Of a stretch of DNA of 61,958 nucleotides, positions 42,013-58,474 are shown one piece after another; within the stretch, counting starts at the first letter, position 1; every line of letters begins with the position of its first letter. The DNA is from a virus (lineage: Duplodnaviria; Caudoviricetes). Under the pieces are notes generated by a model, which was not told the origin of the DNA, ran no database searches, and saw nothing but the letters and a program-made list of their open reading frames with translations. Both the position numbers and the translations under genes were made by a program. The DNA is taken from positions 1 to 61,958 of the IMG/VR virus record IMGVR_UViG_3300015050_000522. One strand, written 5' to 3'.

Positions 42013-42360
42013 TTATTTAGAGATTGCACGCAATGATTCAGGAACAACCTCGCCCAACTTTTCATATAAGTGAACGAGATGTTTTGCAATGACTCGGCTT
42101 GAGTTTTTATCATAGCCAGAACGAGCTTCACGCATTCCAAGCTTGATGCCAAGCGCGTTTGAAGCACCATAAATATTTGCGGCAGTCACTGGAAAGCCAA
42201 GGGTCTTCTCGGCCATCTCCGCAATTTTAGGTTGCGTTAGCTTGTCTAATTGTTCTTTGTTGGTGTCAATCCAACTTGTCAGCTTGTACGATTTTGCTTT
42301 GTCCAAGTTGTTCTTTGTGTGTGAAGAAATTGGTTTACGGGTTGCAAAAGGACTTGTCAT
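42013..42360 (-). CDS. Hypothetical protein, possibly HTH
   Basis: AAGGA RBS before MTSPF; LTQPKIAEMAEKTLGFPVT. Confidence 0.6.
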   Translation of the reverse strand: MTSPFATRKPISSHTKNNLDKAKSYKLTSWIDTNKEQLDKLTQPKIAEMAEKTLGFPVTAANIYGASNALGIKLGMREARSGYDKNSSRVIAKHLVHLYEKLGEVVPESLRAISK

Positions 42361-42361
42361 T

Positions 42362-43234
42362 TCATTGTTCCTTGGTTGATAAATAGTCTTGATACTGAGA
42401 ACAAAATCCGCTGACTTGGCAAAACGATTCACATCGCGTTCGTGCGCCGGGACGGTGTTCTATGAAGTAGCCTTTTGAGGGCATTGAGATTTCGGCTTCA
42501 TCCAGCGTCTTGTGAACGCTCTTGGCACGGACTCCACCCTCTTTCTTGACAGCAAAAGATTCGGGTTTTGCCCACATCTCTTCGTCAGTGCAATCTGGCA
42601 TTTCGCCATCTGTTTCTATTTCAAACAAAGCTTCGCCATGCAGTTTGATACGTGCATGAATATAGTTTGTACGGTCTTCCATCGACCATAGAGGGATGTC
42701 AATAGTCACGATAGGTGCTTGTGGGTAACCTTCCTTTGTCGTGGCTTCACGGCGGCTCCAGTCACGCACAATGGCAATGATTTGTAGCCTCTTGACTGTT
42801 ACCTTCTTGGCGTGTTCAACCAAAAACGCATAGCTGTTTAACTGGTTGTGCCAGTCTTGCTTCTCATTCATTACCGCCCATGCGCTTGTAGTCTTGTAGT
42901 CCGACACAATGATGCCGTCTTCCTCAACTTCTTGTAGGTCAATAGCTCCACTGATACTCATGCCGTCGATGTTGGCATGGATCCGCTCTTCAACGATGTG
43001 GTTCTCTCCTTTGCCATGTTCCAGTACGCCGTGAATAGCTGTACCAAAAATAGACCAGACCATATCGGCTGCGTCTTCTTCTAAAGAATCCCAGTTCTTA
43101 CGCTTGAGTTGAACGATGCGGGGGCTGTTAAGCAGTTCAGTCACCGACATATTCGCCTTACCCTTGCTATATGTGGGGCGCTTTATCACATTCAGGATGG
43201 TCTGCGGAAGACCAAATTTGTTAGTGAGTTTCAT
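42362..43234 (-). CDS. PD-(D/E)XK exonuclease (Cas4/RecB-like)
   Basis: GTAIH; SGAIDL; SDYKTT; QLNSYA; C-terminal RCESFC. Confidence 0.85.
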   Translation of the reverse strand: MKLTNKFGLPQTILNVIKRPTYSKGKANMSVTELLNSPRIVQLKRKNWDSLEEDAADMVWSIFGTAIHGVLEHGKGENHIVEERIHANIDGMSISGAIDLQEVEEDGIIVSDYKTTSAWAVMNEKQDWHNQLNSYAFLVEHAKKVTVKRLQIIAIVRDWSRREATTKEGYPQAPIVTIDIPLWSMEDRTNYIHARIKLHGEALFEIETDGEMPDCTDEEMWAKPESFAVKKEGGVRAKSVHKTLDEAEISMPSKGYFIEHRPGARTRCESFCQVSGFCSQYQDYLSTKEQ

Positions 43235-43236
43235 AG

Positions 43237-43473
43237 TTAGTGGGCTTTCGAGCTTACGTTAGCTTGCTTGTAAAAACTAGCAAGTAGTTCAATGGCTACA
43301 GGCAAAGGCATACCAATAGATGCTGCGCCAGTGGCAAATCCAATACCCATTGCCATTACCCCCACTCCAACACCGACGCCCAATTCCTCCATGTCTCCGC
43401 AAATCATGTTGGCTACTTTCACAGCTTCATCAAGCTGCTCTTGCACTTCTATCAATGTTTTATTAGTTTCCAT
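43237..43473 (-). CDS. Hypothetical protein
   Basis: AGGAG RBS; first gene after the promoter. Confidence 0.65.
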   Translation of the reverse strand: METNKTLIEVQEQLDEAVKVANMICGDMEELGVGVGVGVMAMGIGFATGAASIGMPLPVAIELLASFYKQANVSSKAH

Positions 43474-43503
43474 TTCTTACTCCTATGTGGTTGAAGAGCC
43501 TCC

Positions 43504-43532
43504 AATGTACCTGATGACTTGCTACCTGTCAA
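43504..43532 (-). promoter_or_regulatory. Sigma70 promoter of the recombination operon
   Basis: TTGACA-17-TACATT on the minus strand. Confidence 0.75.
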
Positions 43533-43575
43533 CACTCTATGTGATATAACTGGTGAAATATTTGTAGGGGAAACC

Positions 43576-43860
43576 ATGAGAGCAGCAAGACGCGATGACA
43601 ACGAATCGGAAATTGTTAAAGCTCTTCGTGCGTGTGGTGCTAAGGTAAGAATCATCACTCAGGGCGATGGAATACCTGACTTACTAGTTTCTTACAACGG
43701 GTACACCATACTTCTTGAAGTGAAAGATGGGAATAAACCGCCATCGGCAAGAAAGCTAACTGAGGCAGAGCAAAAGTTCTTTGATGAATGGACGGGCGGG
43801 ATACTGGCTAAGGTGGAATCAGTCCAAGAAGCTCTGGACATTCTGAAGTCCTGCGGTTAA
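43576..43860 (+). CDS. VRR-NUC/resolvase-like PD-(D/E)XK nuclease
   Basis: RAARRDDNESEIV; GIPDLLV; LLEVK; LTEAEQKF. Confidence 0.82.
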   Translation: MRAARRDDNESEIVKALRACGAKVRIITQGDGIPDLLVSYNGYTILLEVKDGNKPPSARKLTEAEQKFFDEWTGGILAKVESVQEALDILKSCG

Positions 43861-43863
43861 ACT
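43835..43863 (+). promoter_or_regulatory. Candidate promoter for a small RNA
   Basis: TGGACA-17-TAAACT. Confidence 0.5.
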
Positions 43864-43869
43864 ACCCTT

Positions 43870-43936
43870 GAAGGTGTCATTTCCCTTCTCCTTGTAAAGT
43901 TGATTTGCCCCTGCCTAAAAAACAGGGGCTTTTTTT
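43870..43936 (+). ncRNA. Candidate ~65-nt anti-Shine-Dalgarno sRNA
   Basis: Promoter, then CATTTCCCTTCTCCTTGT, then terminator. Confidence 0.5.
43907..43936 (+). terminator. Intrinsic terminator
   Basis: GCCCCTG/CAGGGGC stem plus T7. Confidence 0.85.
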
Positions 43937-43938
43937 GC

Positions 43939-43967
43939 TTGACGAGTTTTGAAAGTGGTGGTACATT
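43939..43967 (+). promoter_or_regulatory. Sigma70 promoter
   Basis: TTGACG-17-TACATT. Confidence 0.75.
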
Positions 43968-43973
43968 GGAGTT

Positions 43974-44094
43974 GTTGCTGTGATGGGTGACAAAGTTAGA
44001 GGCCGTTTACACATGCGTTCCGCCTTACCTAATGCTTTCTGTGGGAGAGATATTAGGCAAGGCCATCACCGGGCGCAGTTGTAAGCGGCTTTTT
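43974..44094 (+). ncRNA. C4/CI-like antisense RNA element
   Basis: Nested stems GCCGTTTAC/GTAAGCGGC and TGCGTTC/GGGCGCA; bulged CCATCAC complementary to upstream GTGATGG. Confidence 0.55.
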
Positions 44095-44099
44095 CGTTT

Positions 44100-44530
44100 G
44101 TGCCTTTCTACGCCGACCAATGCAAGAGTCTATCGGGAAGGATCTCATACCGAGGGTAAGGAAGCTAGTAATCGCAGTGCGTCATTGCAGCGATGAAAGT
44201 GTAGTCCCCTAGGAGCAGGATCACTACAGTTCTGGCTTGTATTGAACCCCGGACAGAAGCCTCTCCGACCGGGCGCACAGGGATAGAGTGACTGTAGAGT
44301 AGCTATACCAATCCAGCCCTTCATTGAGGCGGTACACGGTGGCAAGGGTAAAGTCGCCTTCTGGCGGTGTGGTTAGAGAATGCGGCACGTTGAGCCGATA
44401 ACGCTAGAAGATAGGGTGTGACGAACAACTTTACACACCCCCTGAATGTTGCGAACGAACGAGCGACGAATCAGGTAATGCTATAGGTGGAGGCTGTGTC
44501 CTCCCCTAGGCATACCTTTGCCTGATGAAG
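44100..44530 (+). ncRNA. Candidate large structured RNA or origin region
   Basis: No credible ORF; several stems of 6-9 bp. Confidence 0.4.
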
Positions 44531-45121
44531 CTCACTTACTCACTCGGAATCAGCATGAACTTTAATGGATTGATAGTTAAGCAAACCTACCTGACTAGGT
44601 ACTGTAAGAGCAGGCTTGGTTACGCATCAAAGAACGGTGTCAAGATTAAAGATCTTGTCTGCATGGCGCTTGAGGTGGACGGTATGCAAAGGCCGATGGA
44701 TAAAACTAGCAATGAGTGGATTAAGGAATGTATTACTCACATAGTCGGGAAAAACAAAAGCGAAAAACTTCAAAGCTGTACCAAACAGAGATCTTCTGAA
44801 GTTAAGCTTCTTGCTCAAATAAAGCTATACGACAAATCTGCAAGGGTGAAAAGCGTTTTTCCAAAAGGGAATGTTGCATCCGATTCATTTTTGTCTAGCT
44901 ATGAATGGCGCAAAGTACGGATGGTGGCTTTAAAGATGTATGGGCCTAAGTGCCAATGCTGCGGGGCTACTCCTGCTGACGGCGCGGTTATGAATGTTGA
45001 CCATATCAAACCAAGAAAACTTTACCCTAGCCTTGCCCTTGATGTTAAAAATCTTCAAGTGCTTTGCCACTCCTGCAACCACGGCAAAGGCAACTGGGAT
45101 CAAACGGATTGGCGAACGTAA
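44525..45121 (+). CDS. HNH endonuclease with uncharacterised N-terminus (start may be 44555)
   Basis: EWRKVR; CQCCG; VDHIKP; NLQVLCHSCNHGK. Confidence 0.88.
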   Translation: MKLTYSLGISMNFNGLIVKQTYLTRYCKSRLGYASKNGVKIKDLVCMALEVDGMQRPMDKTSNEWIKECITHIVGKNKSEKLQSCTKQRSSEVKLLAQIKLYDKSARVKSVFPKGNVASDSFLSSYEWRKVRMVALKMYGPKCQCCGATPADGAVMNVDHIKPRKLYPSLALDVKNLQVLCHSCNHGKGNWDQTDWRT

Positions 45122-45152: not shown

Positions 45153-45320
45153 TCATGTGTTCTTACTCCTTAACTTGGCTTCAACTGCCCGTGTGTATTC
45201 TTCTTCCCACCCGCAGCAAGAGTTAAATCCAATTTCGTTGTCTATGAGTTTGCTGACCTCTTCGTCTGTCAGCCCAACCCATTGGCGCTTGTAGTCTTGG
45301 ACATCATCGTCTTCATCCAC
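45153..45320 (-). CDS. Small WVGLT-family protein (GTG start, 55 aa)
   Basis: RQWVGLTDEE...AVEAKLRSKNT; AAGGAG RBS. Confidence 0.65.
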   Translation of the reverse strand: MDEDDDVQDYKRQWVGLTDEEVSKLIDNEIGFNSCCGWEEEYTRAVEAKLRSKNT

Positions 45321-45540
45321 AATTTTTCTCCTTCAGTTTGGCTTCAATCTTTCTAGCTACGACTTCTTCATAGCAGCCAGCGTATTGACAAATGCTGTCA
45401 ATCTCTGTTCTGACTTCCTTGTCCGTCAGCCTCACCCATTGGCGCTGCTCTAAACGTTTATTCAAATCAATTATCTTATCGTTCGCTTCCTGTGCAAACT
45501 TGGCTAGATTCTCTTGTGTCCATTCAGCAAAATTTGTCAT
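45313..45540 (-). CDS. WVGLT-family protein
   Basis: QRQWVRLTDKE...IEAKLKEKN. Confidence 0.7.
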   Translation of the reverse strand: MTNFAEWTQENLAKFAQEANDKIIDLNKRLEQRQWVRLTDKEVRTEIDSICQYAGCYEEVVARKIEAKLKEKNCG

Positions 45541-45734
45541 CAGTCTTCCTTTTTAAGTTTTGGTAGGGGGCACCAGTGTGTCCAGAACGGGTCACCAAAG
45601 TACGTTCCGTAGTGGGCAATATTTCCAGCACCGAGTAGCTGCACCTTAACACCTCGCGGCGCTGTGTCGATGGTTTGCCAGTACACGTCGGTTGCTACGG
45701 CTACCGTGCCTGCTGAGTTGATTGTGTGTGTCAT
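45540..45734 (-). CDS. DUF551-like protein
   Basis: WQTIDTAP...THWCPLP. Confidence 0.7.
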   Translation of the reverse strand: MTHTINSAGTVAVATDVYWQTIDTAPRGVKVQLLGAGNIAHYGTYFGDPFWTHWCPLPKLKKED

Positions 45735-45738
45735 GGGT

Positions 45739-46182
45739 TTACCTTCTCCGCATCTTTATGTTGGACGGCCCCTTAACCACGTTCCAATTTGTCGCGTCGT
45801 TCCTGTTAAGGCGTTTGGTTTTATTGAACTCTACAACGGCTTTTGCTTTGTGCATCTCTTGGTATAGCTTGACTTTCTCTTGGTCTGGTAGGATGCAAGT
45901 CTCCGTAGCGGCTGTCATCTTCGACAGGCTTAACTTCTTCAGCAGCGTTGTGTCGTGCTCTGGCCCACACTTATTTAGCCAGACTGATACCCTTGGCAGG
46001 CGACTGGCTACAAACCCCCGAACCTCCGTCGCGTATTTCCCTTGCGGGGTGCGTAGTAGCGTAGAGTTGTGTGCATCAATACCTGTGATAGACCGAAATC
46101 CATGCAATACCTCGTTCATCGTCTGGAACTTACGCCAACCTCGTATCAGCAGGGCATCCCAGTATGCTTGGTTATCGGTCAT
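45739..46182 (-). CDS. Hypothetical protein
   Basis: ATGA overlap within the operon. Confidence 0.65.
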   Translation of the reverse strand: MTDNQAYWDALLIRGWRKFQTMNEVLHGFRSITGIDAHNSTLLRTPQGKYATEVRGFVASRLPRVSVWLNKCGPEHDTTLLKKLSLSKMTAATETCILPDQEKVKLYQEMHKAKAVVEFNKTKRLNRNDATNWNVVKGPSNIKMRRR

Positions 46183-46385
46183 GCTTGCCTCTCTCTCAGC
46201 ATTGCGTCTGCCACTATGTAGGCGGCTTGAATGAGGGCGGGTATGTTTGTTTCGTTGTTCGCAAGCATCCCCTGCATCGCCTTCGCCGCAAAGTAGTCGC
46301 GTAATAACATACCTTTTGAATAATTCAATTCATCCCCCACGCCGTTGTAGGGGAACGCTTGTGGGACTTTGTGGTCTTTGCTCAT
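46179..46385 (-). CDS. LRDYFA-family protein
   Basis: AFP...GMLLRDYFAAKAMQG...AYIVADAMLRER. Confidence 0.78.
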   Translation of the reverse strand: MSKDHKVPQAFPYNGVGDELNYSKGMLLRDYFAAKAMQGMLANNETNIPALIQAAYIVADAMLRERQA

Positions 46386-46472
46386 CTTCTTTCTCCTTAG
46401 TTAGGTGCTGTCTCTCCAGCAGTCACGCATTTGCCGCTTGCGTTTAGCGCACTTTCCCCGCCCCGTTGGAAA

Positions 46473-46892
46473 TCACAGGAAAAGCCTTGGGGCAGGTTGC
46501 AATCTATCTTTCAAAGCGTAGCCCATCAGCGGCCAGATTTTTTGCTCCGCGTTTTGCCGTGCAATCTTACGGCCTAATTCGGGGTCAAAGTTCTCTGGGC
46601 TGGCGCAGGCTGATTCACCAGTAACAGTGAAGCCATTACCCAAAACTAGCACGCAGAAAGTCAGCAACTCTAGTGGTTCTAAATCACTGTTGTTGGCACT
46701 AGGTTTTTCTCGGCCTACGTAAGTGTCGTTGTCCAATGCCCCGCGCCGCCCATCAGCCGCCGTGAAGTAATGCTCACTCACAATATTGGCTTGCAAGTCA
46801 GCAGGTGTTACTCGTGGTGCGGTCTTGCCTTTGGCTTGAATCTCGCGCTCAATGGCGCTGTCCGTTGTATCAGGTGAGTTAATGTGGTTCAT
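46473..46892 (-). CDS. N4 Gp49/Sf6 Gp66-family protein
   Basis: APRVTP; NGFTVTGESACASPENFD. Confidence 0.85.
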   Translation of the reverse strand: MNHINSPDTTDSAIEREIQAKGKTAPRVTPADLQANIVSEHYFTAADGRRGALDNDTYVGREKPSANNSDLEPLELLTFCVLVLGNGFTVTGESACASPENFDPELGRKIARQNAEQKIWPLMGYALKDRLQPAPRLFL

Positions 46893-46946
46893 AGGTTCTC
46901 CAAGTAGTTGCACCCTTTGCCGGGGCTGCTCGGCATCAATAAATTC

Positions 46947-47186
46947 TTATCTCCACGCACTAAATGCGTCATGGTTAGTGACCGTCGCACTGGGTTTTGT
47001 CTCAGCGCGTTTTGCAATCTTATCTGGCCTTTCTCGCTTCATCACGATAGACGCATCGGGTACTTCACGGGTGAAGAAGCCTTTACCGCAGTGACCACAG
47101 GCACGCTTGCGAATGATTGAGTCTTCCTGCTTGCGAGTCTCCAGCACAACCCCTTTGCTTTCGTTGTGACAGTGGGGACAGTTCAT
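46947..47186 (-). CDS. NrdR-like Zn-ribbon protein
   Basis: MNCPHC...VLETR...RKRACGHCGKGFFTRE. Confidence 0.72.
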   Translation of the reverse strand: MNCPHCHNESKGVVLETRKQEDSIIRKRACGHCGKGFFTREVPDASIVMKRERPDKIAKRAETKPSATVTNHDAFSAWR

Positions 47187-47521
47187 TCGTTTTTATCTTT
47201 CAGCTTGGCTTCAATGGCTCGGGCAAATGCTCGATGTGCTGCATAAATCGGCTTATCGCCGCGTGACCCCCACTGGGCGTCGGTGACAGCATCCATTTCC
47301 GCATCTGTCAGCCCTACCCATTGGCGCTGTGGTGGTGTGGTGTAGAGGGGCAAAGCCTGTTGTCCGTCAGTAATATCCGTTGGGTTATCCGTAACGTAAA
47401 CAGACATACCATCTTTTGTGTAGACCATCCATGCAACCGGAGCGTCTGTTGACTGCTCGACATCTTCGCGTTTGCATACCTTGCCGCAGAATCCACCGCA
47501 GCTTGAACATTGTTTGGTCAT
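47183..47521 (-). CDS. WVGLT-family protein
   Basis: PVAWM...PLYTTPPQRQWVGLTD...FARAIEAKLK. Confidence 0.75.
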   Translation of the reverse strand: MTKQCSSCGGFCGKVCKREDVEQSTDAPVAWMVYTKDGMSVYVTDNPTDITDGQQALPLYTTPPQRQWVGLTDAEMDAVTDAQWGSRGDKPIYAAHRAFARAIEAKLKDKNE

Positions 47522-47736
47522 GTGTTGCGCTCCTTTAGCTTGGCCTCGACTAATGCTGTCACATAACCGGCGTGGGTCGGGTCACAGCCTTTCCATATTT
47601 CGTGCCGTTCCGCATCCGTCAGCCCTACCCACGGGCGCTGTGGTGTTGTAGTTACTCCTTGCAGTTGCGGTATGTCGTAGTGGCGGCTGACGTAGACCAC
47701 CTTGTCGGGGTCGGTGGGGTGTGGTTTAACTGGCAT
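47518..47736 (-). CDS. WVGLT-family protein
   Basis: PQRPWVGLTD...VEAKLKERNT. Confidence 0.72.
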   Translation of the reverse strand: MPVKPHPTDPDKVVYVSRHYDIPQLQGVTTTPQRPWVGLTDAERHEIWKGCDPTHAGYVTALVEAKLKERNT

Positions 47737-47849
47737 TGTTCTTCTCCGGTGCTGGTTTTAGCCGCTTAAACGCTGCTTTCAGGCGCTGCTTTATAGCTTG
47801 AAGTCGCAGGCTTTCTTTTAAGGTTTTGAGGCTCATGTGTTCTTCTCCT

Positions 47850-48002
47850 TTAGTTTGGCTTCAATGGCTCGGGCAAAGTTTGTGTGATAAAGCGCACAGC
47901 AGTGTCGCCATCTTTGAGTAGCACAGTAACTGTTGCGGCTCGCAAATCACTGCCGTATATCAGCATCAGTGCTTCCATGATTCTTTGGGTTTCGTTGTTC
48001 AT
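47850..48002 (-). CDS. Hypothetical protein
   Basis: AAGGA RBS before MNNETQR. Confidence 0.55.
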   Translation of the reverse strand: MNNETQRIMEALMLIYGSDLRAATVTVLLKDGDTAVRFITQTLPEPLKPN

Positions 48003-48053
48003 TTTTTTCCTTTGTATAAAACGCCTCAAAATCAGCGCGCATTTGTTCATTGG

Positions 48054-48392
48054 TCATGGCTGGCCTTTATTGCAGTGTTCAATGACGGCTCGTGCTGCGG
48101 CTCTTTCGGGGGTATCGCTGTCAAAATACCTATCCGCTACTTTTAAAGTCCACCAATTACAAATGGAATCTGATGCACGTCTCGGAAAGCAATCAAACTT
48201 TTTCGCAATAGGCCAGATCACCTCCGGGTCTGCGTGGTTAAAAAGCTGCCAGCCTTCGTAGTCCATCGGGCCATCGCATCGGGCGCGGTTATTCAATACG
48301 TAAACAGTCTCGAGAATTAGACTTATCCACACCCTGTCCGGCGTGTACCCAATAGCTAGTGCCAACGTGTAATCAATTTCTTGGTTTGTCAT
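48054..48392 (-). CDS. NinX-like protein (divergent)
   Basis: MTNQEID..LALAIG...IWPIA...TPERAAA. Confidence 0.55.
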   Translation of the reverse strand: MTNQEIDYTLALAIGYTPDRVWISLILETVYVLNNRARCDGPMDYEGWQLFNHADPEVIWPIAKKFDCFPRRASDSICNWWTLKVADRYFDSDTPERAAARAVIEHCNKGQP

Positions 48393-48682
48393 GTCAATCC
48401 TTTTGTGTTGTAAGCGGCTTCAAGCGCATCAGCAGCGTCATCACACAAACCGACTAAGTGGGCGTTGGCTTGGCGCACTGTCATGTCAGGAATGATGTCG
48501 GTTTTGTCGCGTAGCCTGTCAATCAGCTCCGCGATGTATGGGTCTGGCTGGCTGGCTGCGGCAATGGCTGCGAGTGCGTAGGCTTTCATTTGTTCTGCGC
48601 TGTAGCTCCAGCAATCCAAGCCTGTGTCTTCGTCAAAGCAGTGCGTGTCAGGCTTGGGCAGCTCTGGCATTGGTGTTGTCAT
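48389..48682 (-). CDS. Hypothetical protein
   Basis: PELPKP...YSAEQMKAYA; ATGA overlaps. Confidence 0.68.
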   Translation of the reverse strand: MTTPMPELPKPDTHCFDEDTGLDCWSYSAEQMKAYALAAIAAASQPDPYIAELIDRLRDKTDIIPDMTVRQANAHLVGLCDDAADALEAAYNTKGLT

Positions 48683-49419
48683 ACCGCACCTCCCACACCA
48701 CGGGCTGCGTCGATGGCTTCGTTAAGGTCGTCGCCACTCCAGCCCTCTAATCCGCACCCCGTTACCTTTGCGACGGTTAGCTGTGGAATGAGACTCATGC
48801 TGTCGCAATGTTCGCGCAACCACCGATACCGCTCAGCATCTACGCTTACTGGCTCTGCTTGGGCTACAGGTTGCCGCTTAACCGAATTAATCAGTGAATC
48901 GTAATTTGCCTGCGGGTAGTCCTCCGGCGACTTAATCGCCGCCATGATCTTCGGGATGTTCAGCCACCCGCCATCGGTACGGTACGTGTTCGGGTCAAGA
49001 CGCAGCGCTTTCAGTAGTTGATCTGCTTCGTTGCTGGCTGGCTGGGGTGTGGTGATGTGCCAAGTTTGAACGTCGGGCAACGGGTCATGGTGAATACCGC
49101 GTGTGTTGAAAAACTCTTTGATGGCCTCGGCAACTGGCCCTGCTTCGTCGTGACCTGATGCTATTACTTGAGTGCTTCGCGTAGTCAGAAAACCCGCGAA
49201 GTCGTACACCGCGCCCATGCCGATTGAAAGGCGGCTGTCGCCTACAGGCTCACCCTGCACAGCTTCAAGCTCGGTGCGTAGTGCGGCTTCAAAAGCCTGC
49301 CTGCTTTCATTAACGACTGATTGACCAGACAAACCTTCGTAAAAGCTGGCAGTACTGTCCGCCATTATTTGCGCCATCGCCATCAGCCGCGCTACTTTTG
49401 CATCAATAGATTCAGTCAT
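48679..49419 (-). CDS. Mosaic hypothetical protein (Ead/Ea22-like DAERYRWLR tail)
   Basis: DAERYRWLR...LNEAIDAA. Confidence 0.7.
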   Translation of the reverse strand: MTESIDAKVARLMAMAQIMADSTASFYEGLSGQSVVNESRQAFEAALRTELEAVQGEPVGDSRLSIGMGAVYDFAGFLTTRSTQVIASGHDEAGPVAEAIKEFFNTRGIHHDPLPDVQTWHITTPQPASNEADQLLKALRLDPNTYRTDGGWLNIPKIMAAIKSPEDYPQANYDSLINSVKRQPVAQAEPVSVDAERYRWLREHCDSMSLIPQLTVAKVTGCGLEGWSGDDLNEAIDAARGVGGAV

Positions 49420-49583
49420 AGTAGTGCCTTCCATTTGGTCTTAGGCTCATTAGCCCGTTCAACATAAAAGTGAATCAAGAAATTAAATAACTGCACGTAG
49501 GTCATCTCTACGCCAGTGTCCTGCTTAAGCCGCGCCCGTATCTTGTCGATGTCGGGGCTGATGGGTACGGTGATGCGTTTCAT
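49416..49583 (-). CDS. Small RHH-like protein
   Basis: MKRITVPIS...MTYVQLFNFLI. Confidence 0.6.
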   Translation of the reverse strand: MKRITVPISPDIDKIRARLKQDTGVEMTYVQLFNFLIHFYVERANEPKTKWKALL

Positions 49584-49729
49584 TTCAAACTTCCAGTCAA
49601 GAAAATATAAACAAGAAAGCAAAAGCAAACAAGAGTCAGCCCCAGACACACGGTTTCGAAATTACGCATCCACCTGTCAACGCATTCAAAAAATGCCTCT
49701 GCTTTAAAGATTTCGTCATCGTCTTTCAT
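49580..49729 (-). CDS. Small membrane protein (49 aa)
   Basis: MKDDDEIF...C-terminal TM helix; ATGA overlaps at both ends. Confidence 0.55.
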   Translation of the reverse strand: MKDDDEIFKAEAFFECVDRWMRNFETVCLGLTLVCFCFLVYIFLTGSLK

Positions 49730-49920
49730 GCGCTCTCCCGTATCAAATAAGTATTCAATCGCGCTATGCGGTTACGGTTATATTCCGCAACGGCACTGGC
49801 GAACTCCACACCTGTCTCCGCCTTCAATAGTTCCAGCTTCGCTTCGGCAAGCTCTTCAGCGGCAATTACCATTGGTGTCGGCATCTTAAAAAAGCGGAAC
49901 AAATCAGTCAGTATATTCAT
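49726..49920 (-). CDS. Hypothetical protein
   Basis: AAGGAG RBS; PTP..IAAEELAEA...YNRNRIARL. Confidence 0.7.
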   Translation of the reverse strand: MNILTDLFRFFKMPTPMVIAAEELAEAKLELLKAETGVEFASAVAEYNRNRIARLNTYLIRESA

Positions 49921-50062
49921 CGTCTTCTCCTTGTGGTTTACAAAATTCACAGCCGGGATGAGCAGGGTCGCGGCAGTCTGGATTCCTTTTCAAAGCAGCT
50001 TCGCTACCCCTTTCATAACTGTCATCTTCACGGCAACTTTCCATTTCTTCGGGTGTTAGCAT
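49904..50062 (-). CDS. Hypothetical protein
   Basis: AAGGA RBS; PDCRDPAHPGCEFC. Confidence 0.6.
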   Translation of the reverse strand: MLTPEEMESCREDDSYERGSEAALKRNPDCRDPAHPGCEFCKPQGEDDEYTD

Positions 50063-50133
50063 CTGTTTTCCTTGAATGGGTACAAGTAATTTAACACAGT
50101 ATGTACCAGACAGCAAGGGGGTAAACCTACCTG

Positions 50134-50161
50134 TTGACAAAAAAGATTTGTGGTGTACAGT
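50134..50161 (+). promoter_or_regulatory. Sigma70 promoter of the replication operon
   Basis: TTGACA-16-TACAGT. Confidence 0.55.
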
Positions 50162-54642: not shown

Positions 54643-54804
54643 TAAGCATTCGGCTGCAAGCTGGCAAGCAGCTATGAGCATAGGTGTTTTCCCTACCTCT
54701 AGTTGCTTTGCTAGTTTCATTGCCGACATCATTTCATTATGGGTCGTGGCCTTTGAGCCAAGTACATAAGCGTGGGTCAGTGAATTGTCTAGTTCAGGGA
54801 ACAT
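54604..54804 (-). CDS. Early-region hypothetical protein
   Basis: Overlapping operon member. Confidence 0.45.
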   Translation of the reverse strand: MFPELDNSLTHAYVLGSKATTHNEMMSAMKLAKQLEVGKTPMLIAACQLAAECLLDGATNALRESE

Positions 54805-55081
54805 GAATTTCCAATACGGGTTTGCTCTCGCCTACTATTTGGCCTTCTTCTTGCGTCACCTTGCGTAGTGCGACTATGGCCTCACGGACATATTTTGGCA
54901 CTCTTCGGGATTGATCGTGGGCTTCTACTAGCCTTTGTTTGCCTGTATCACAAATGCTTTTCTCTCCAATCTTGGCAACAACGTCCTGCACAGTTTTTAC
55001 CATGTCATCAGGGCTTTGGCCTACCTCGCAATCCACCCAAGCTATCAAGCGGCGCAAATGGTTTATGTCTGAGCGTTTCAT
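54794..55081 (-). CDS. Early-region hypothetical protein
   Basis: GAGG RBS, ATGA overlap. Confidence 0.62.
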   Translation of the reverse strand: MKRSDINHLRRLIAWVDCEVGQSPDDMVKTVQDVVAKIGEKSICDTGKQRLVEAHDQSRRVPKYVREAIVALRKVTQEEGQIVGESKPVLEIHVP

Positions 55082-55248
55082 ACCAATTCACCTCTTGGAT
55101 AGCACTTGCAGTAAAACTCATTACCAAACTGGTCAACGAAGTATAGGTTTTCTTGGCCTGTATCGGTCAGGGTGATTACGCCATTGGCAAGCCAAGCGTC
55201 CATAGTCCTCTCTTCAATCTTAGTGATTTTGGGTAGGTGTTTAAGCAT
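55078..55248 (-). CDS. Early-region hypothetical protein
   Basis: GGAGAAAACCATG RBS. Confidence 0.6.
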   Translation of the reverse strand: MLKHLPKITKIEERTMDAWLANGVITLTDTGQENLYFVDQFGNEFYCKCYPRGELV

Positions 55249-55277
55249 GGTTTTCTCCCGTAGTCTCGTAGTCAGCA

Positions 55278-55370
55278 TTAAGTTCTCCAAATTAAAAGGT
55301 CAAGGGCAATAATAATTAGCGTGACTAAAAGCACCACGCGCTCCACTATTTCAACTCGGGTCAGTTTCAT
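55278..55370 (-). CDS. Small membrane peptide (30 aa)
   Basis: GGAGG RBS; ...IIALDLLIWR. Confidence 0.55.
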   Translation of the reverse strand: MKLTRVEIVERVVLLVTLIIIALDLLIWRT

Positions 55371-55597
55371 CTCAAATCCTCCGGATAGTGGTGTAATTGG
55401 TTGCACTTCTTGCAGTACAGCATCTGGTCTTTGAGGTAGGCATCCTCGCCCACGTCTGACTTCTCCCACTTCTCAGTGGTGGGGTTGTACTTGGTGCTGC
55501 CAAAGTATTGGCTAACGGTTTCATATAGGTAGGAAAACTCGTCGTGTCCGCACTCCGCGCATCGGTTATCGACCAAGTTCTTTCTGCGGTTTTTCAT
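55367..55597 (-). CDS. Zn-finger hypothetical protein
   Basis: CAECG...CKKC. Confidence 0.65.
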   Translation of the reverse strand: MKNRRKNLVDNRCAECGHDEFSYLYETVSQYFGSTKYNPTTEKWEKSDVGEDAYLKDQMLYCKKCNQLHHYPEDLR

Positions 55598-55869
55598 GTC
55601 AGCTCCTCGGGTTTATCGTGCCGCAAGCAGTCATCGGAGCTACACTCTCCAGTCTTTAGCTCGTCATCTTCTAAGGTGCGATAGCAGTGGGGGCATTCTG
55701 CTTCATTCTCCTCAATGTCTTGCACGATAGGGTCGTTCTCGCTGGTAGTTTCCCAGTTTTGCCATTGCGGGTTGTCCGTTGCTTCCTTTACCGCAGCTTC
55801 ACTGCTGTCTGCCTCGACATGCGCCCACTGCACCGTAGTCACGATTCGCGTTACTCGAAATGATTTCAT
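55594..55869 (-). CDS. Hypothetical protein
   Basis: VEADSSEAA motif plus Cys cluster. Confidence 0.65.
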   Translation of the reverse strand: MKSFRVTRIVTTVQWAHVEADSSEAAVKEATDNPQWQNWETTSENDPIVQDIEENEAECPHCYRTLEDDELKTGECSSDDCLRHDKPEELT

Positions 55870-56249
55870 GTCAACTCCTCTGGTATTTCAACTTCATCGC
55901 CCAGCTTTGAAGCTACTAGACAGCGCATAGCTGCGATGAGTGGGGTGGAGCCATATTCCATGCGCCCCTTCTTTTCAGCGCACCACGGACGAGTAAACTC
56001 ATAAAAAACGTGGTCATACGGGGAGTGGCTGATCGTCATGCCTTCCCGCTCAATGATTGGCCCGCCCTGTGACCAGTCAGTTGAGTAGCGCAGCGAACTG
56101 GCATGTTCACAAGCCATAACTCCGCGTTTGTTTATCCGTTCAACAATTCGAGCGCGCACCTTGGGGTCGCTGTGATTGGTCGGCACCCACCCTTCGCACT
56201 TCGCCACCGCCCAGTTAAGGGCAGCGTCCGTCAATTCTGATGTAAGCAT
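55866..56249 (-). CDS. NinX-family protein
   Basis: LNWAVAKCEG; YSTDWSQGGPIIERE; TPLIAAMRC. Confidence 0.85.
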   Translation of the reverse strand: MLTSELTDAALNWAVAKCEGWVPTNHSDPKVRARIVERINKRGVMACEHASSLRYSTDWSQGGPIIEREGMTISHSPYDHVFYEFTRPWCAEKKGRMEYGSTPLIAAMRCLVASKLGDEVEIPEELT

Positions 56250-56263
56250 TGTTTTCTCCTTGT

Positions 56264-56316
56264 CGGGACTATTCCCGCGAAAACCCTCGGTGTAAGGGTT
56301 TCCACTGATACAGTCA
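56264..56316 (-). repeat. Intergenic hairpin element, copy 1
   Basis: AAACCCT-N7-AGGGTTT core in a ~21-bp imperfect stem. Confidence 0.7.
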
Positions 56317-56490
56317 GTATTCGTCGGCGTAGTCTTCCAAGCTGGTAATCAGTCCGTCAAAATCCTCGCTCTCTCCCAGCAAGTCAGCCATTGCATAAAC
56401 TGCGCTGCGGTCGTACTCTTGGCAAAGTGATTCAAGATAGTCGCGGCGGTTCTCGTAACCATTGGCGGTATAAGCGTTATGTTCATTCAT
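56314..56490 (-). CDS. Small acidic protein (58 aa)
   Basis: AAGGAG RBS; NGYENRRDYLESL...EDFDGLI. Confidence 0.7.
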   Translation of the reverse strand: MNEHNAYTANGYENRRDYLESLCQEYDRSAVYAMADLLGESEDFDGLITSLEDYADEY

Positions 56491-56500
56491 GGTTTTCTCC

Positions 56501-56641
56501 TTAAAGTGAAATGTTTTCTATGTCTCGAAACTCGTTAAAGGGCCAGCGATCAAACCCTCCTAGCGAGTAATAAAAACCGTCCTTATCGGTCACCCTGATA
56601 ACGGTGTATCCGTCTTTCGTGGTTACTTGAATGCAAAGCAT
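56501..56641 (-). CDS. Hypothetical protein
   Basis: AAGGAGAAAACCATG RBS. Confidence 0.55.
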   Translation of the reverse strand: MLCIQVTTKDGYTVIRVTDKDGFYYSLGGFDRWPFNEFRDIENISL

Positions 56642-56651
56642 GGTTTTCTCC

Positions 56652-56828
56652 TTAATAGTTGGAACGGGCTTCTTTGCGGCCTTGTTCAATTAAGTAACGA
56701 GCTTCTGAGCGCTCGTCAATCTTTTCTGATTCAAGCATTCGCCGGATTATTTCGGCTTGTGCTGTGGCTGTCTTGGCCTTCTCGTAGTTGTAACCTGCGG
56801 TGATGTAATCGACTGGTGCGTAGTTCAT
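56652..56828 (-). CDS. Hypothetical protein
   Basis: YITAGYNYE...LIEQGRKEAR. Confidence 0.6.
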   Translation of the reverse strand: MNYAPVDYITAGYNYEKAKTATAQAEIIRRMLESEKIDERSEARYLIEQGRKEARSNY

Positions 56829-56839
56829 GGTTCTGGCTT

Positions 56840-57118
56840 TCAAAATAATGGGTTTTGTGAGGTGGTGCTGCGGGGTTGGTTCTGGGTGTGCGTCAGGCTA
56901 AAAGCTGCGGCCTCTGCTGCTTGGTGTGGGTCAGTCGGATAAAGCGGCTTGAATTCTCCCGCTTCGCCGTCCCAATAATCCGGGGCGGGTTTGAGCTTGT
57001 AAAAAGCTGCACATCTTTCAGCCTCTACCAGCGTTCCATTTTTGCAGCATGGCATACCCTGATGTATTAAGCTCCATTCCCCACGCCCGTGGCTGTAATA
57101 AGTGGTTGGCTCGGTCAT
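56840..57118 (-). CDS. Hypothetical protein
   Basis: ATGA overlap. Confidence 0.55.
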   Translation of the reverse strand: MTEPTTYYSHGRGEWSLIHQGMPCCKNGTLVEAERCAAFYKLKPAPDYWDGEAGEFKPLYPTDPHQAAEAAAFSLTHTQNQPRSTTSQNPLF

Positions 57119-57567
57119 ACTGCCACCTGCGCGGCTGCGTCATATAAATCCTCGGCTTCGCGGGTCATCCTGTCAGCCTTTGATTTAAGCTTTTCCGCAT
57201 AGTGGGCGGCTGCGTCAATCGTGAACGTTGCTTTGTAGGCTTTCCGAGCGGCCGCGCTGGTGGCTTTCATACCGTCCAGCGTGGGACGGTAAACGGTTTC
57301 ACCAAATACATCAAATACGACAACCCGGAAACCTCTGGCGGTGTTGTGCATATCACGGCTGCTGCTCTCCATGATTTCAAAAAACAACCCTTCCATAATG
57401 GGGCTTGCTGCGGTAATCCGAGAATGAAAATATTTCAAAGTCGAATCGTCAACATAGTGCGTCAAGCCGCTTAAAGCCTCTTGCGCTTCGTGCTTGGCCT
57501 GGCTGAAATAACGCTCTTGAAAAGTGCAGACGTTTGCTGCGTGAAGTGCTTTTTTAATCGTTTCCAT
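57115..57567 (-). CDS. Hypothetical protein
   Basis: AAGG RBS before METIKK; TLKYFHSRI motif. Confidence 0.68.
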   Translation of the reverse strand: METIKKALHAANVCTFQERYFSQAKHEAQEALSGLTHYVDDSTLKYFHSRITAASPIMEGLFFEIMESSSRDMHNTARGFRVVVFDVFGETVYRPTLDGMKATSAAARKAYKATFTIDAAAHYAEKLKSKADRMTREAEDLYDAAAQVAV

Positions 57568-57586
57568 TTTGTTACCTTGTAAGTTT

Positions 57587-57633
57587 GGCGTAATTGCCCG
57601 TAAACCCTCGGCTGGAGGGCTTACAGTCAATCA
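57587..57633 (-). repeat. Intergenic hairpin element, copy 2
   Basis: TAAGCCCT-N7-AGGGTTTA core; GGGCAATTACGCC tail. Confidence 0.7.
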
Positions 57634-57813
57634 ATCAGGTGTTGTGTCGTCTGCCCCTAAGTAATCGGGTTCGTTATAAGTTGGCGCAAAAACCCGTGCA
57701 TGGTCGCCATCTTTGAACCCTTCTAAATAATTGGCGTTGTTGGGGTATTTTTTAATCCCACGGTCGCCACCATTGTTGTAACCGTGCTGATAACCTAAAT
57801 CAAAATCACTCAT
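57631..57813 (-). CDS. Hypothetical protein
   Basis: FDLGYQHG...YLEGFKDG. Confidence 0.6.
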   Translation of the reverse strand: MSDFDLGYQHGYNNGGDRGIKKYPNNANYLEGFKDGDHARVFAPTYNEPDYLGADDTTPD

Positions 57814-57815
57814 TT

Positions 57816-58199
57816 TTATTGCTCCATGTATTTGGCGAATAAGTCGGCAAAGCTGGCGCGAAGTATTGCGGCATTGCTGCTGTCTGCTCTGAAATAAGCG
57901 TCAGCGATAGCGGCGGCAAAACCTCCACCGCTTTCTTGCATTTTTTCAGCGGCTGAAAAGTATTTAGAACGCTCCACATTAGTCCAAACCTCAGCCGTGG
58001 CGGGTTGCTTTGCTATGGCTTCAATTTGGGCGGCTACAGTGTTTAAAACCACATAAATCGCGGAATAGACTGCTGGTGCATTTTTGCCTGATAAGTCAGC
58101 AATAGCGGTGGCATAGGCTAAAGCTTCGATAATCGTTGGACGGTCAGCAAATAATTTAAGCTTCAAGCTAGCGGCTAGTTTCAATAATTCGGTTTTCAT
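57816..58199 (-). CDS. Hypothetical protein
   Basis: AAGGAG RBS; GGGFAAAIADAYFRADSSN. Confidence 0.68.
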   Translation of the reverse strand: MKTELLKLAASLKLKLFADRPTIIEALAYATAIADLSGKNAPAVYSAIYVVLNTVAAQIEAIAKQPATAEVWTNVERSKYFSAAEKMQESGGGFAAAIADAYFRADSSNAAILRASFADLFAKYMEQ

Positions 58200-58218
58200 T
58201 TCGTTTACTCCTTGTTTA

Positions 58219-58264
58219 GGCATGATTGCCCGATAACCCTCTGCGAAGGGTTACCAGTCCGTCA
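58219..58264 (-). repeat. Intergenic hairpin element, copy 3
   Basis: TAACCCT-N6-AGGGTTA core; GGGCAATCATGCC tail. Confidence 0.7.
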
Positions 58265-58474
58265 CGCTGGTTGTACAAAACAACGTTGTTCTATGTCCTG
58301 CATCACTTGATCTAAAACCTTTTGCTTTGTGCCCTTGTAACCCTCTGCTTTTAGGATTGCATAGCATGAGCGGCCACGGCTCATTTGCATGCCTTTGATT
58401 TCAAGGCGCAAACCTGTGCGCAGGGTCATCAGGCGGCAAAGGTCTATTTGTTCTGGTGTAGTCAATGCGTTCAT
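58262..58474 (-). CDS. Hypothetical protein
   Basis: GLRLEIKGMQMSRGRS motif; AAGGA RBS. Confidence 0.68.
   Translation of the reverse strand: MNALTTPEQIDLCRLMTLRTGLRLEIKGMQMSRGRSCYAILKAEGYKGTKQKVLDQVMQDIEQRCFVQPA

Follow-up and report, generated by a model that had tools for sequence, protein, structure and literature searches.

A short unit at the 3' end of a small endonuclease gene most likely represents a new family of small RNAs (sRNAs), conserved in a group of uncultured phages, as judged from comparison of their sequences. The unit combines a predicted promoter lying across the end of the gene, a CU-rich tract that is complementary to Shine-Dalgarno (SD) sequences, and an intrinsic terminator, and this predicted anatomy is conserved, with all three parts, in about 54 distinct relatives. 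A discrete RNA is likely to be made from it. With less confidence, we lean towards the whole reading, in which a small-RNA gene on the 3' end of the nuclease gene would carry an anti-SD seed that blocks translation in trans.

The genomic setting of the unit

The window, that is the whole stretch of DNA analysed here, is a complete virus record of 61,958 bp with direct terminal repeats at its ends and a G+C content of 46.6%. Its gene products include a portal, a terminase, a helicase and an exonuclease. Relatives of the terminase and of the small nuclease are spread over metagenome bins of many phyla and are thus uninformative on the host. A nucleotide search with positions 43400-44600 found no match in deposited phage records, near or distant. 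At the protein level, only distant homologues of the nuclease (<50% identity) were found in phage records, and a Pfam search with the 94-aa product gave no hit. A search of sequencing runs listed no RNA run with this sequence, and a single DNA run contained a 0.07 share of the sequence words. The features of the region are collected in Table 1.

Table 1. Features of the nuclease 3' end and the adjoining unit (window coordinates)
Feature	Position	Strand	Remarks
Endonuclease gene, 94 aa	43576..43860	+	ORF; PHROG 93 endonuclease, E 1.8e-7; VRR-NUC-like by eye
Predicted -35, TGGACA	43835..43840	+	inside nuclease codons Leu-Asp-Ile
Predicted -10, TAAACT	43858..43863	+	17 nt after the -35; its TAA is the nuclease stop codon
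Putative transcript start (~43870) and weak 5' hairpin, GAAGG.G/C.CCUUC	43870..43888	+	start placed from -10 spacing; hairpin in MFE folds
CU-rich anti-SD/anti-start seed, CATTTCCCTTCTCCTTGT	43878..43895	+	3' part from ~43889 unpaired in the predicted fold
A/U-rich spacer, AAAGTTGATTT	43896..43906	+	GTTGATT or GTTGGATT recurs in relatives
Intrinsic terminator: GCCCCTG (43907-43913), 9-nt loop, CAGGGGC (43923-43929), seven T (43930-43936)	43907..43936	+	7-bp GC-rich stem
Predicted promoter 3' of the terminator, TTGACG-17-TACATT, with upstream TG	43939..43967	+	found in 3-kb promoter scan

Conservation among related phages

With the nuclease protein as query, 121 relatives were found in viral contigs, and the best 80 of these 121 were taken for analysis. 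The same layout is present in 63 of 64 loci (the window and L002-L064), in which the nuclease is 62-90% identical. The conserved order is the nuclease stop codon, then 31-66 nt, a hairpin and a T run; in the single exception, L060, the locus is cut off by the contig end. The 63 loci reduce to 54 unique sequences, which are the base of all family counts given here. Among the best 80 of 121, one further locus (L071) also has the layout and was excluded from all counts, and the layout is absent from the other 16 (L065-L070 and L072-L081, nuclease at most 58% identical). It recurs in L171, a contig from a different collection.

The rest of the untranslated region (UTR) is poorly conserved, with a mean column identity of 41%. 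No second copy was detected in the window, where our model R1 scored at most 12.8 bits elsewhere, compared to 37.9 bits at the locus, itself a member of the training set. The features of the window taken alone lie within chance; the evidence for the unit comes from the relatives. These sequences are related, and counts on the 54 are therefore not counts of independent events. The flanking sequence has nevertheless diverged enough that conserved counts indicate selection, and it is on this ground that the promoter is accepted below.

A predicted promoter across the nuclease stop codon

The promoter-like TGGACA-17-TAAACT reported in the initial annotation is exact in the sequence, at 43835-43840 and 43858-43863. 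A point that went beyond that observation is the overlap of the -10 hexamer with the nuclease stop codon, which places the -35 within coding sequence and makes the unit double as the nuclease 3' UTR. By itself the window promoter is weak (9/12), its -35 overlaps a conserved protein motif, and promoter-like sites are no rarer than chance in a 3-kb scan (5, compared to 3.7±2.0 in shuffles).

The relatives provide a different level of evidence. Between a point 60 nt before the nuclease stop codon and the terminator, a promoter-like site by the rule of the scanning tool occurs in 28 of the 54 unique relatives, compared to 3.0±1.7 in shuffles. Placement is identical in 22 of those 28 (22/54 overall), with a -35 whose first base lies 23 nt ahead of the nuclease stop codon, a 17-nt spacer, and a -10 that opens with the stop codon. 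The best promoters of the family are those of L032 and L063. Of the unique relatives, 43 end the nuclease gene with TAA or TAG; in 37 of these, T is found at +6, and in 25, A at +5 together with T at +6, against a background rate for TAnnnT of 0.011 per position. The middle positions of the hexamer vary among relatives (TAAGAT, TAGAAT, TAATAT, TAGCAT), as they do in -10 elements. At the other end, the -35 overlaps a conserved Leu-Asp/Glu-Ile motif of the nuclease in the relatives as well. The Leu codon at this place is CTT in 27 of 32 cases with a CTN codon, versus 78 of 274 for the other CTN codons of the same genes. This choice of CTT creates the TTG of the -35, and so amounts to a bias at a synonymous site. 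Given this pattern in the relatives, we accept the initially annotated promoter as a conserved, though predicted, element.

The CU-rich tract and its possible readings

The core CATTTCCCTTCTCCTTGT is present at 43878-43895, exact to the base, and so are the seven complementarities to ribosome-binding sites (RBSs) of minus-strand genes that had been listed for it (11 nt at 49924, 10 nt at 56254, 9 nt at 47842, and 8 nt at 45326, 46391, 56495 and 56646). All seven matched sites are minus-strand RBSs with the pattern CAT-N7-8-TTCTCCTT, and what they have in common is the RBS consensus of the phage, which reads TTCTCCTT on the plus strand. Any consensus anti-SD would produce matches of this kind.

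The initial annotation had raised the prospect that the seed is not conserved, which would have spoken against a functional RNA. Instead, 47 of the 54 unique relatives retain, no more than 35 nt ahead of the terminator stem, a stretch of 5 nt or longer that matches the 3' tail of 16S rRNA exactly, compared to 9.1±2.6 (maximum 16) in 200 shuffles; the template for scoring was a 13-nt motif that we take to be that of the 16S 3' tail. The distance from the end of the seed to the terminator stem has a median of 12 nt and a range of 2-22 (n=49). The seed is complementary to SD/start regions and exposed in the predicted fold, as in the class of trans-acting anti-SD (CU-seed) sRNAs. A clear CU tract is absent from the spacer in seven of the 54.

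Perhaps the tract acts only in cis, with the unit serving as the 3' UTR and terminator of the nuclease gene, the pyrimidines being kept for some local reason (terminator efficiency, stability or insulation), and the internal promoter being possibly inconsequential. The unit is, after all, physically the 3' UTR of ORF 43576-43860; the CU tract forms the 3' half of the terminator stem itself in L041 and L043 and sits inside the terminator loop in L063; and the duplex, cross-genome and ortholog comparisons described below gave no target specificity. However, the tract is rare at the other predicted terminators of the same loci (5 of 32, versus 47 of 54 here), and it is difficult to see what role a conserved -10 on the stop codon and a synonymous bias in the -35 would have in a 3' UTR and nothing more. 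Base-pairing to the SD of the nuclease gene itself is excluded as a general rule (see below). We therefore consider a purely cis-acting element rather unlikely, and continue to favor a trans-acting RNA.

The same tract can also be read on the opposite strand, as a working or relic RBS and ATG of a minus-strand gene or mini-ORF. The core cannot be distinguished from the real minus-strand RBSs of the phage, a CAT stands at RBS spacing in 21 of the 54 unique relatives, and the reverse complement in L011 and L036 looks like several genuine start regions of the respective phage, ATG included. Yet 24 of the 54 have no start codon, three have only CAC or CAA, and six have no tract. The ORFs that begin at the CAT range from 4 to 108 aa, differ in frame, and run antisense to the nuclease gene; the one in the window is indeed the 7-codon ORF of the initial annotation (MTPSRVV, from the ATG at 43880-43878). 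Moreover, no minus-strand promoter-like site was found within 43937-45018, the flanking promoter and terminator are both plus-oriented, and the hairpin read on the minus strand has no U run. A relic RBS of a deleted gene had been named at the outset as the reading that would undo the sRNA; with the minus-strand CAT restricted to a minority of the sequences that share the CU tract, and with its ORF not conserved, that reading fails, and we judge a minus-strand origin very improbable. A plus-strand mini-ORF at TAAnATG was considered as well and rejected, being present in only 17 of the 54, with lengths (4-44 aa) that are not conserved.

The terminator and the predicted RNA

The strong terminator of the initial annotation is present, as a hairpin at 43907-43929 (RNAfold -12.2 kcal/mol) followed by seven T. 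An automated scan missed it because its rule admits loops of 3-8 nt only and this loop is 9 nt. Compensatory changes occur at all 7 stem pairs among the 54 sequences. The terminator is directional, since the minus strand has AAATCAAC after the hairpin in place of a U run.

The predicted RNA of the window runs from ~43870 to 43936, about 67 nt, and those of the relatives have a median length of 70 nt (range 52-82), with the start placed about 7 nt after the -10. The plus-strand unit of ~65 nt proposed initially is thereby borne out as a sequence arrangement, its promoter, seed and terminator each appearing conserved in the relatives. In single-sequence folds, most members are predicted to form a 5' hairpin, a mostly unpaired CU tract between two hairpins, a U-rich spacer and the terminator. 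The 5' hairpin of the window is weak (-5.6 kcal/mol for the upstream part, z -0.78); it pairs the CCCUUC part of the seed and leaves UCCUUGUAAAGUUGAUUU free. The corresponding hairpins of the relatives are mostly stronger, with stems that differ by clade (GCGGUAA/UUGCCGC, GCAAC/GUUGC, CAACUG/CAGUUG, CCAG/CUGG), and an AGTTGC motif is recurrent. A consensus fold recovers the terminator only.

Antitermination cassettes such as PR'-6S RNA-tR' of phage lambda have a similar anatomy, with a promoter and, about 70 nt further on, a strong terminator. Could the unit be a leader or attenuator, in which promoter and terminator act as a switch for downstream plus-strand genes and the short RNA is a by-product? 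Co-oriented genes or tRNA genes do lie downstream in several relatives. On the other hand, a separate strong promoter directly follows the terminator in the window and in at least seven relatives (L002, L025, L041, L046, L054, L056 and L171), and in the window, this promoter (43939-43967) means that the unit 3' of the terminator needs no read-through. That downstream plus-strand unit ends after an HNH gene, facing convergent genes on the opposite strand. A leader would also give no reason for the conserved anti-SD tract, and we find this explanation unlikely in comparison with an sRNA gene.

Relationship to known small RNAs

At the gathering threshold, Rfam detected nothing in the window and only tRNAs in 20 related loci. 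A permissive search matched 43875-43936 to the full length of RF02278 (model positions 1-64) at 30.2 bits, versus a cut-off of 50 (E = 8e-5 for 121 nt, 1e-5 per genome), and this was the sole match to the model in the genome.

The original description of RF02278 is that of Kimelman 2012, as referred to in citing papers. According to the accounts cited here, its members include ncS03, ncS05, NcS27/BdhR1 and ncS62 of Burkholderia cenocepacia and S17S of Bordetella pertussis (PMC5688073, PMC4603805, PMC11722255). RNAs of this type are described as double hairpins of 57-92 nt in which CU-rich segments, left unpaired, read as the reverse complement of RBSs; more than half of the interactions predicted for them fall on start regions, and overexpression slows growth while masking of the CU regions has the opposite effect (PMC5688073, PMC4603805). 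S17S is reported to depend on Hfq and to repress a reporter directly (PMC11722255).

The unit resembles these RNAs in its length range, in ending with a terminator, and in its RBS-complementary CU tract, and it may well work as the betaproteobacterial toxic or double-hairpin sRNAs do. Is it then a true homolog, captured from a host? The alignment over the full model shares UGUC...UCC...UCUCCU...GU.GAUU and the terminator, with the spacer AAAGTTGATTT aligned to UGGAUU of the RF02278 consensus, and, as noted, the genome holds no other match. However, the score stays below the cut-off, so that the unit is not a demonstrable member, and none of 50 records of relatives passes the cut-off: the only scores are those of L032 (25.4 bits), L054 (18.8), L002 (16.6) and L023 (13.1), the places of these matches being assigned by coordinate conversion. 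Weak matches also turn up in 10-13 of 14 control genomes. In the window, the first helix of the model would consist of non-standard pairs and is not formed. Two hairpins are nevertheless predicted; the CU tract lies in the 3' half of hairpin 1 and in the linker, and RF02278 has its CU-rich motifs 5'-terminally and in the hairpin 1 loop. The setting is different too, RF02278 consisting of chromosomal genes of Betaproteobacteria and the present unit lying at the end of a nuclease gene in a complete virus record with terminal repeats. Finally, unrelated CU-seed sRNAs were matched in the same permissive search (ncS16 at 22.8, PsrR1 at 19.3 and anti-hemB at 17.5 bits, all far below their cut-offs). 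We consider true homology with RF02278 improbable.

PsrR1 of cyanobacteria (RF02701), ncS16 and anti-hemB of Burkholderia, and NmsR of Neisseria, for which unpaired, CU-rich regions complementary to RBSs have been described (PMC5688073), share with the unit an exposed UUCUCCU-type seed followed by a terminator. These lineages are unrelated, and the likeness is therefore one of architecture only.

For the position of the gene, the closest parallel among the RNAs compared is DapZ, which is enterobacterial and has a GcvB-like G/U-rich seed. The DapZ promoter is placed just upstream of the dapB stop codon (PMC9438474). The arrangement predicted here is similar, the promoter falling in the last part of the upstream gene, next to its stop codon, and the terminator being held in common with the mRNA; in the window, a single plus-strand terminator lies between the nuclease stop codon and the next promoter. 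The present unit differs in its phage setting, in its CU-rich anti-SD seed, and in a -10 that overlaps the stop codon itself.

Base-pairing sRNAs carried by phages and acting on specific host genes have been demonstrated experimentally, according to reports on a lambda sRNA (10.1101/2024.10.31.621285) and a prophage sRNA (PMC13502914). In contrast to those, the unit belongs to an uncultured phage family and is predicted to be of a generic anti-SD type. Our literature search on phage-encoded anti-SD sRNAs found no such family described for lytic or uncultured phages.

Possible targets

Which messages, of the phage or of a host, would such an RNA pair with? The initial annotation had proposed an RNA able to silence many genes of the phage itself. 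This part of the proposal is not supported: it derives from generic SD complementarity, and controls with shuffled seeds, other genomes and orthologs do about as well. Three complementary matches of at least 10 nt occur in the window outside the locus; since match counts of this length include each locus's own antisense match, the count is 4, a number reached by 90 of 200 shuffled seeds. The mean duplex energy of the seed with 104 predicted start regions is -12.4 kcal/mol, compared to -11.3±0.7 for shuffled seeds. The best target in the window was the start of the minus-strand gene at 42013-42360 (-23.0 kcal/mol, or -24.2 with a seed longer by five bases, in three helices that include GAAATGACA). 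It was rejected, with 26 of 100 shuffled seeds and 40 of 100 flank-only shuffles matching that energy; the 9-nt helix with this start is not conserved in L002, which has a different gene downstream.

Similar comparisons were made across 13 genomes. Only L036, L011 and L002 have more matches of ≥10 nt than shuffling would lead one to expect, their counts being attained in 1, 0 and 4 of 200 shuffles, respectively; in the remaining ten, 21-151 of 200 shuffles reach the observed count. The matches of L036 and L011 cover the SD, spacer, AUG and first codons of several of their own small genes. Matches of at least 11 nt number 20 in all for seeds in their own genomes versus 13.3 for the average other genome, and when own and other genomes are compared by word length, 9-mers are pure noise and 10- and 11-mers have a slight excess only. 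Most of the matching of the L036 and L011 type is thus shown to be generic.

Orthologs tell the same story. For the translation initiation regions (TIRs) of 24 genes with orthologs in at least 8 genomes, cognate pairs average -12.9 and non-cognate pairs -12.6 kcal/mol. Among cognate partners, the TIR of the nuclease binds most weakly (-10.6 versus -13.0 kcal/mol for non-cognate pairs), and pairing with the nuclease's own SD was discarded as a general rule, many relatives having no SD before the nuclease start. The small early genes at 45153-50140 and 54794-58474, which had been named as targets, have few orthologs in the 12 further genomes, and the orthology test of these genes was therefore confined to L002. 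Nor do the RBSs clearly follow the seed: the AAGGAA:AAGGAG ratio by seed type (CUCC or UUCCUU) is 62:88 versus 41:39, in counts that take in internal ATGs. Across the 13 genomes, the excess in L036, L011 and L002 aside, no target emerged whose complementarity extends beyond the generic SD, and cognate pairings were not preferred overall. An RNA of this kind would be able to pair with nearly every SD. The phage's own genes carry strong SDs, so that an unspecific anti-SD RNA would hit the phage too.

Proposed action and implications

The steps that we propose are as follows. A sigma-70-type promoter, with its -35 in the last nuclease codons and its -10 on the stop, would start an RNA near 43870, and this RNA would end at the terminator to give a transcript of about 67 nt whose sequence is also part of the nuclease mRNA as its 3' UTR. 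The RNA would consist of a short 5' hairpin, an exposed CU tract mirroring an SD and start codon, a U-rich spacer, and the terminator hairpin with its U tail. The exposed tract would then pair with SD/start regions of mRNAs and block ribosome loading, as CU-seed sRNAs do. Of the possible mechanisms, the exposed anti-SD seed lends most support to translational repression in trans, and we infer transcription, action in trans and repression on these grounds. Of the trans-acting repressor originally suggested, what survives is the unit and its conserved anti-SD seed; tuning to the phage's own genes is not supported.

A more speculative view concerns the origin and use of the family. The family may have arisen when a translation-start region of a phage was copied in inverted orientation and became a transcribed anti-start RNA under a host-type promoter, a mimic of the mRNA-docking tail of the ribosome. 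The L036 and L011 RNAs are complementary to the SD, spacer, AUG and first codons of several small genes of their own phages. Such an RNA might time the shut-off of variable small early genes or damp host mRNAs, and would be a convergent or captured counterpart of the betaproteobacterial toxic sRNAs. We offer this account tentatively, as a possibility that we would not ourselves bet on.

Regulatory RNAs are almost unannotated in lytic and uncultured phages. Here, a short protein-free unit is kept at one place in dozens of diverged phage genomes, with apparent selection even on a synonymous position of the neighboring gene. If the RNA is made and blocks RBSs, it would be a cheap, protein-free means for a phage to reshape translation, and this would suggest that anti-SD sRNAs, known from a few bacterial groups, recur as a tool of phages. 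From promoter to terminator, the unit measures about 100 bp.

Region downstream of the terminator of the candidate sRNA

The predicted terminator that closes the sRNA unit is followed in the window by a strong promoter and then by a long interval leading directly to an HNH endonuclease gene (see the table below). The approximately 550 nt between this promoter and the HNH gene contain no convincing ORF, and a search of Rfam with the non-coding stretch returned no match. The predicted fold of the stretch reaches -205 kcal/mol (z -3.94), a stability that was equaled in 0 of 100 shuffled sequences, and comparison with the related viral locus L002 uncovers conserved blocks arranged in a mosaic pattern. 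This stretch may be a large structured RNA.

Features of the window and of the relative L141
Feature	Position	Strand	Details
290-aa PD-(D/E)XK exonuclease	window 42362-43234	-	PHROG 2139, E 1.3e-48
Back-to-back divergent promoters	window 43504-43575		also at the corresponding place in relatives
94-aa endonuclease	window 43576-43860	+	
Strong promoter	window 43939-43967	+	TTGACG-17-TACATT, upstream TG
Non-coding stretch, promoter to HNH gene	window 43939-44524		~550 nt beyond promoter
HNH endonuclease gene	window 44525-45121		directly after non-coding stretch
Three small genes with GGAGAAGAACACATGA start	L141 near 10115, 12893, 13356	-	

Of 134 loci, 18 (L004, L007, L009-L011, L017, L022, L026, L030, L036, L038, L044, L045, L051, L053, L057, L062 and L071) share a different element, the conserved motif ACGCATGGGGATTG, located 3' of the sRNA terminator in one to three copies each. 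It is often accompanied by GGGTTAGCGCC close by and by tRNA genes downstream. ACGCATGGGGATTG was not found in the window, where 4 matches at 3 mismatches compare with 5.0 expected.

Paired nucleases and divergent promoters

The divergent promoter region is flanked by two nucleases, and this pairing is retained in relatives, with an opposite-strand ORF of about 290 aa in six of the nine loci inspected. A conserved TGTCAAC on the plus strand corresponds to the -35 element (TTGACA) of the leftward operon, while the extended -10 element, TGaTATAAC in the window, belongs to the 94-aa nuclease gene. Because the predicted ATG of this gene lies only 2-8 nt past the -10 element in many relatives, and lacks an SD, some of their nuclease mRNAs may be leaderless.

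Recurrent and variant elements in relatives

Three small genes of L141 (record G009, the genome containing L011), which encode proteins of 50, 110 and 81 aa, have a near-identical start region in common, GGAGAAGAACACATGA, which suggests that the small genes in this phage group carry repeated start-region cassettes.

Variant designs of the sRNA element were also seen 3' of the nuclease gene in four loci. In L041, L043 and L046 the terminator stem consists of AAGGAGGG paired with CCCTCCTT, that is, an SD with its own anti-SD, and in L063 the terminator loop contains the CU tract, CCCTTCTCC.
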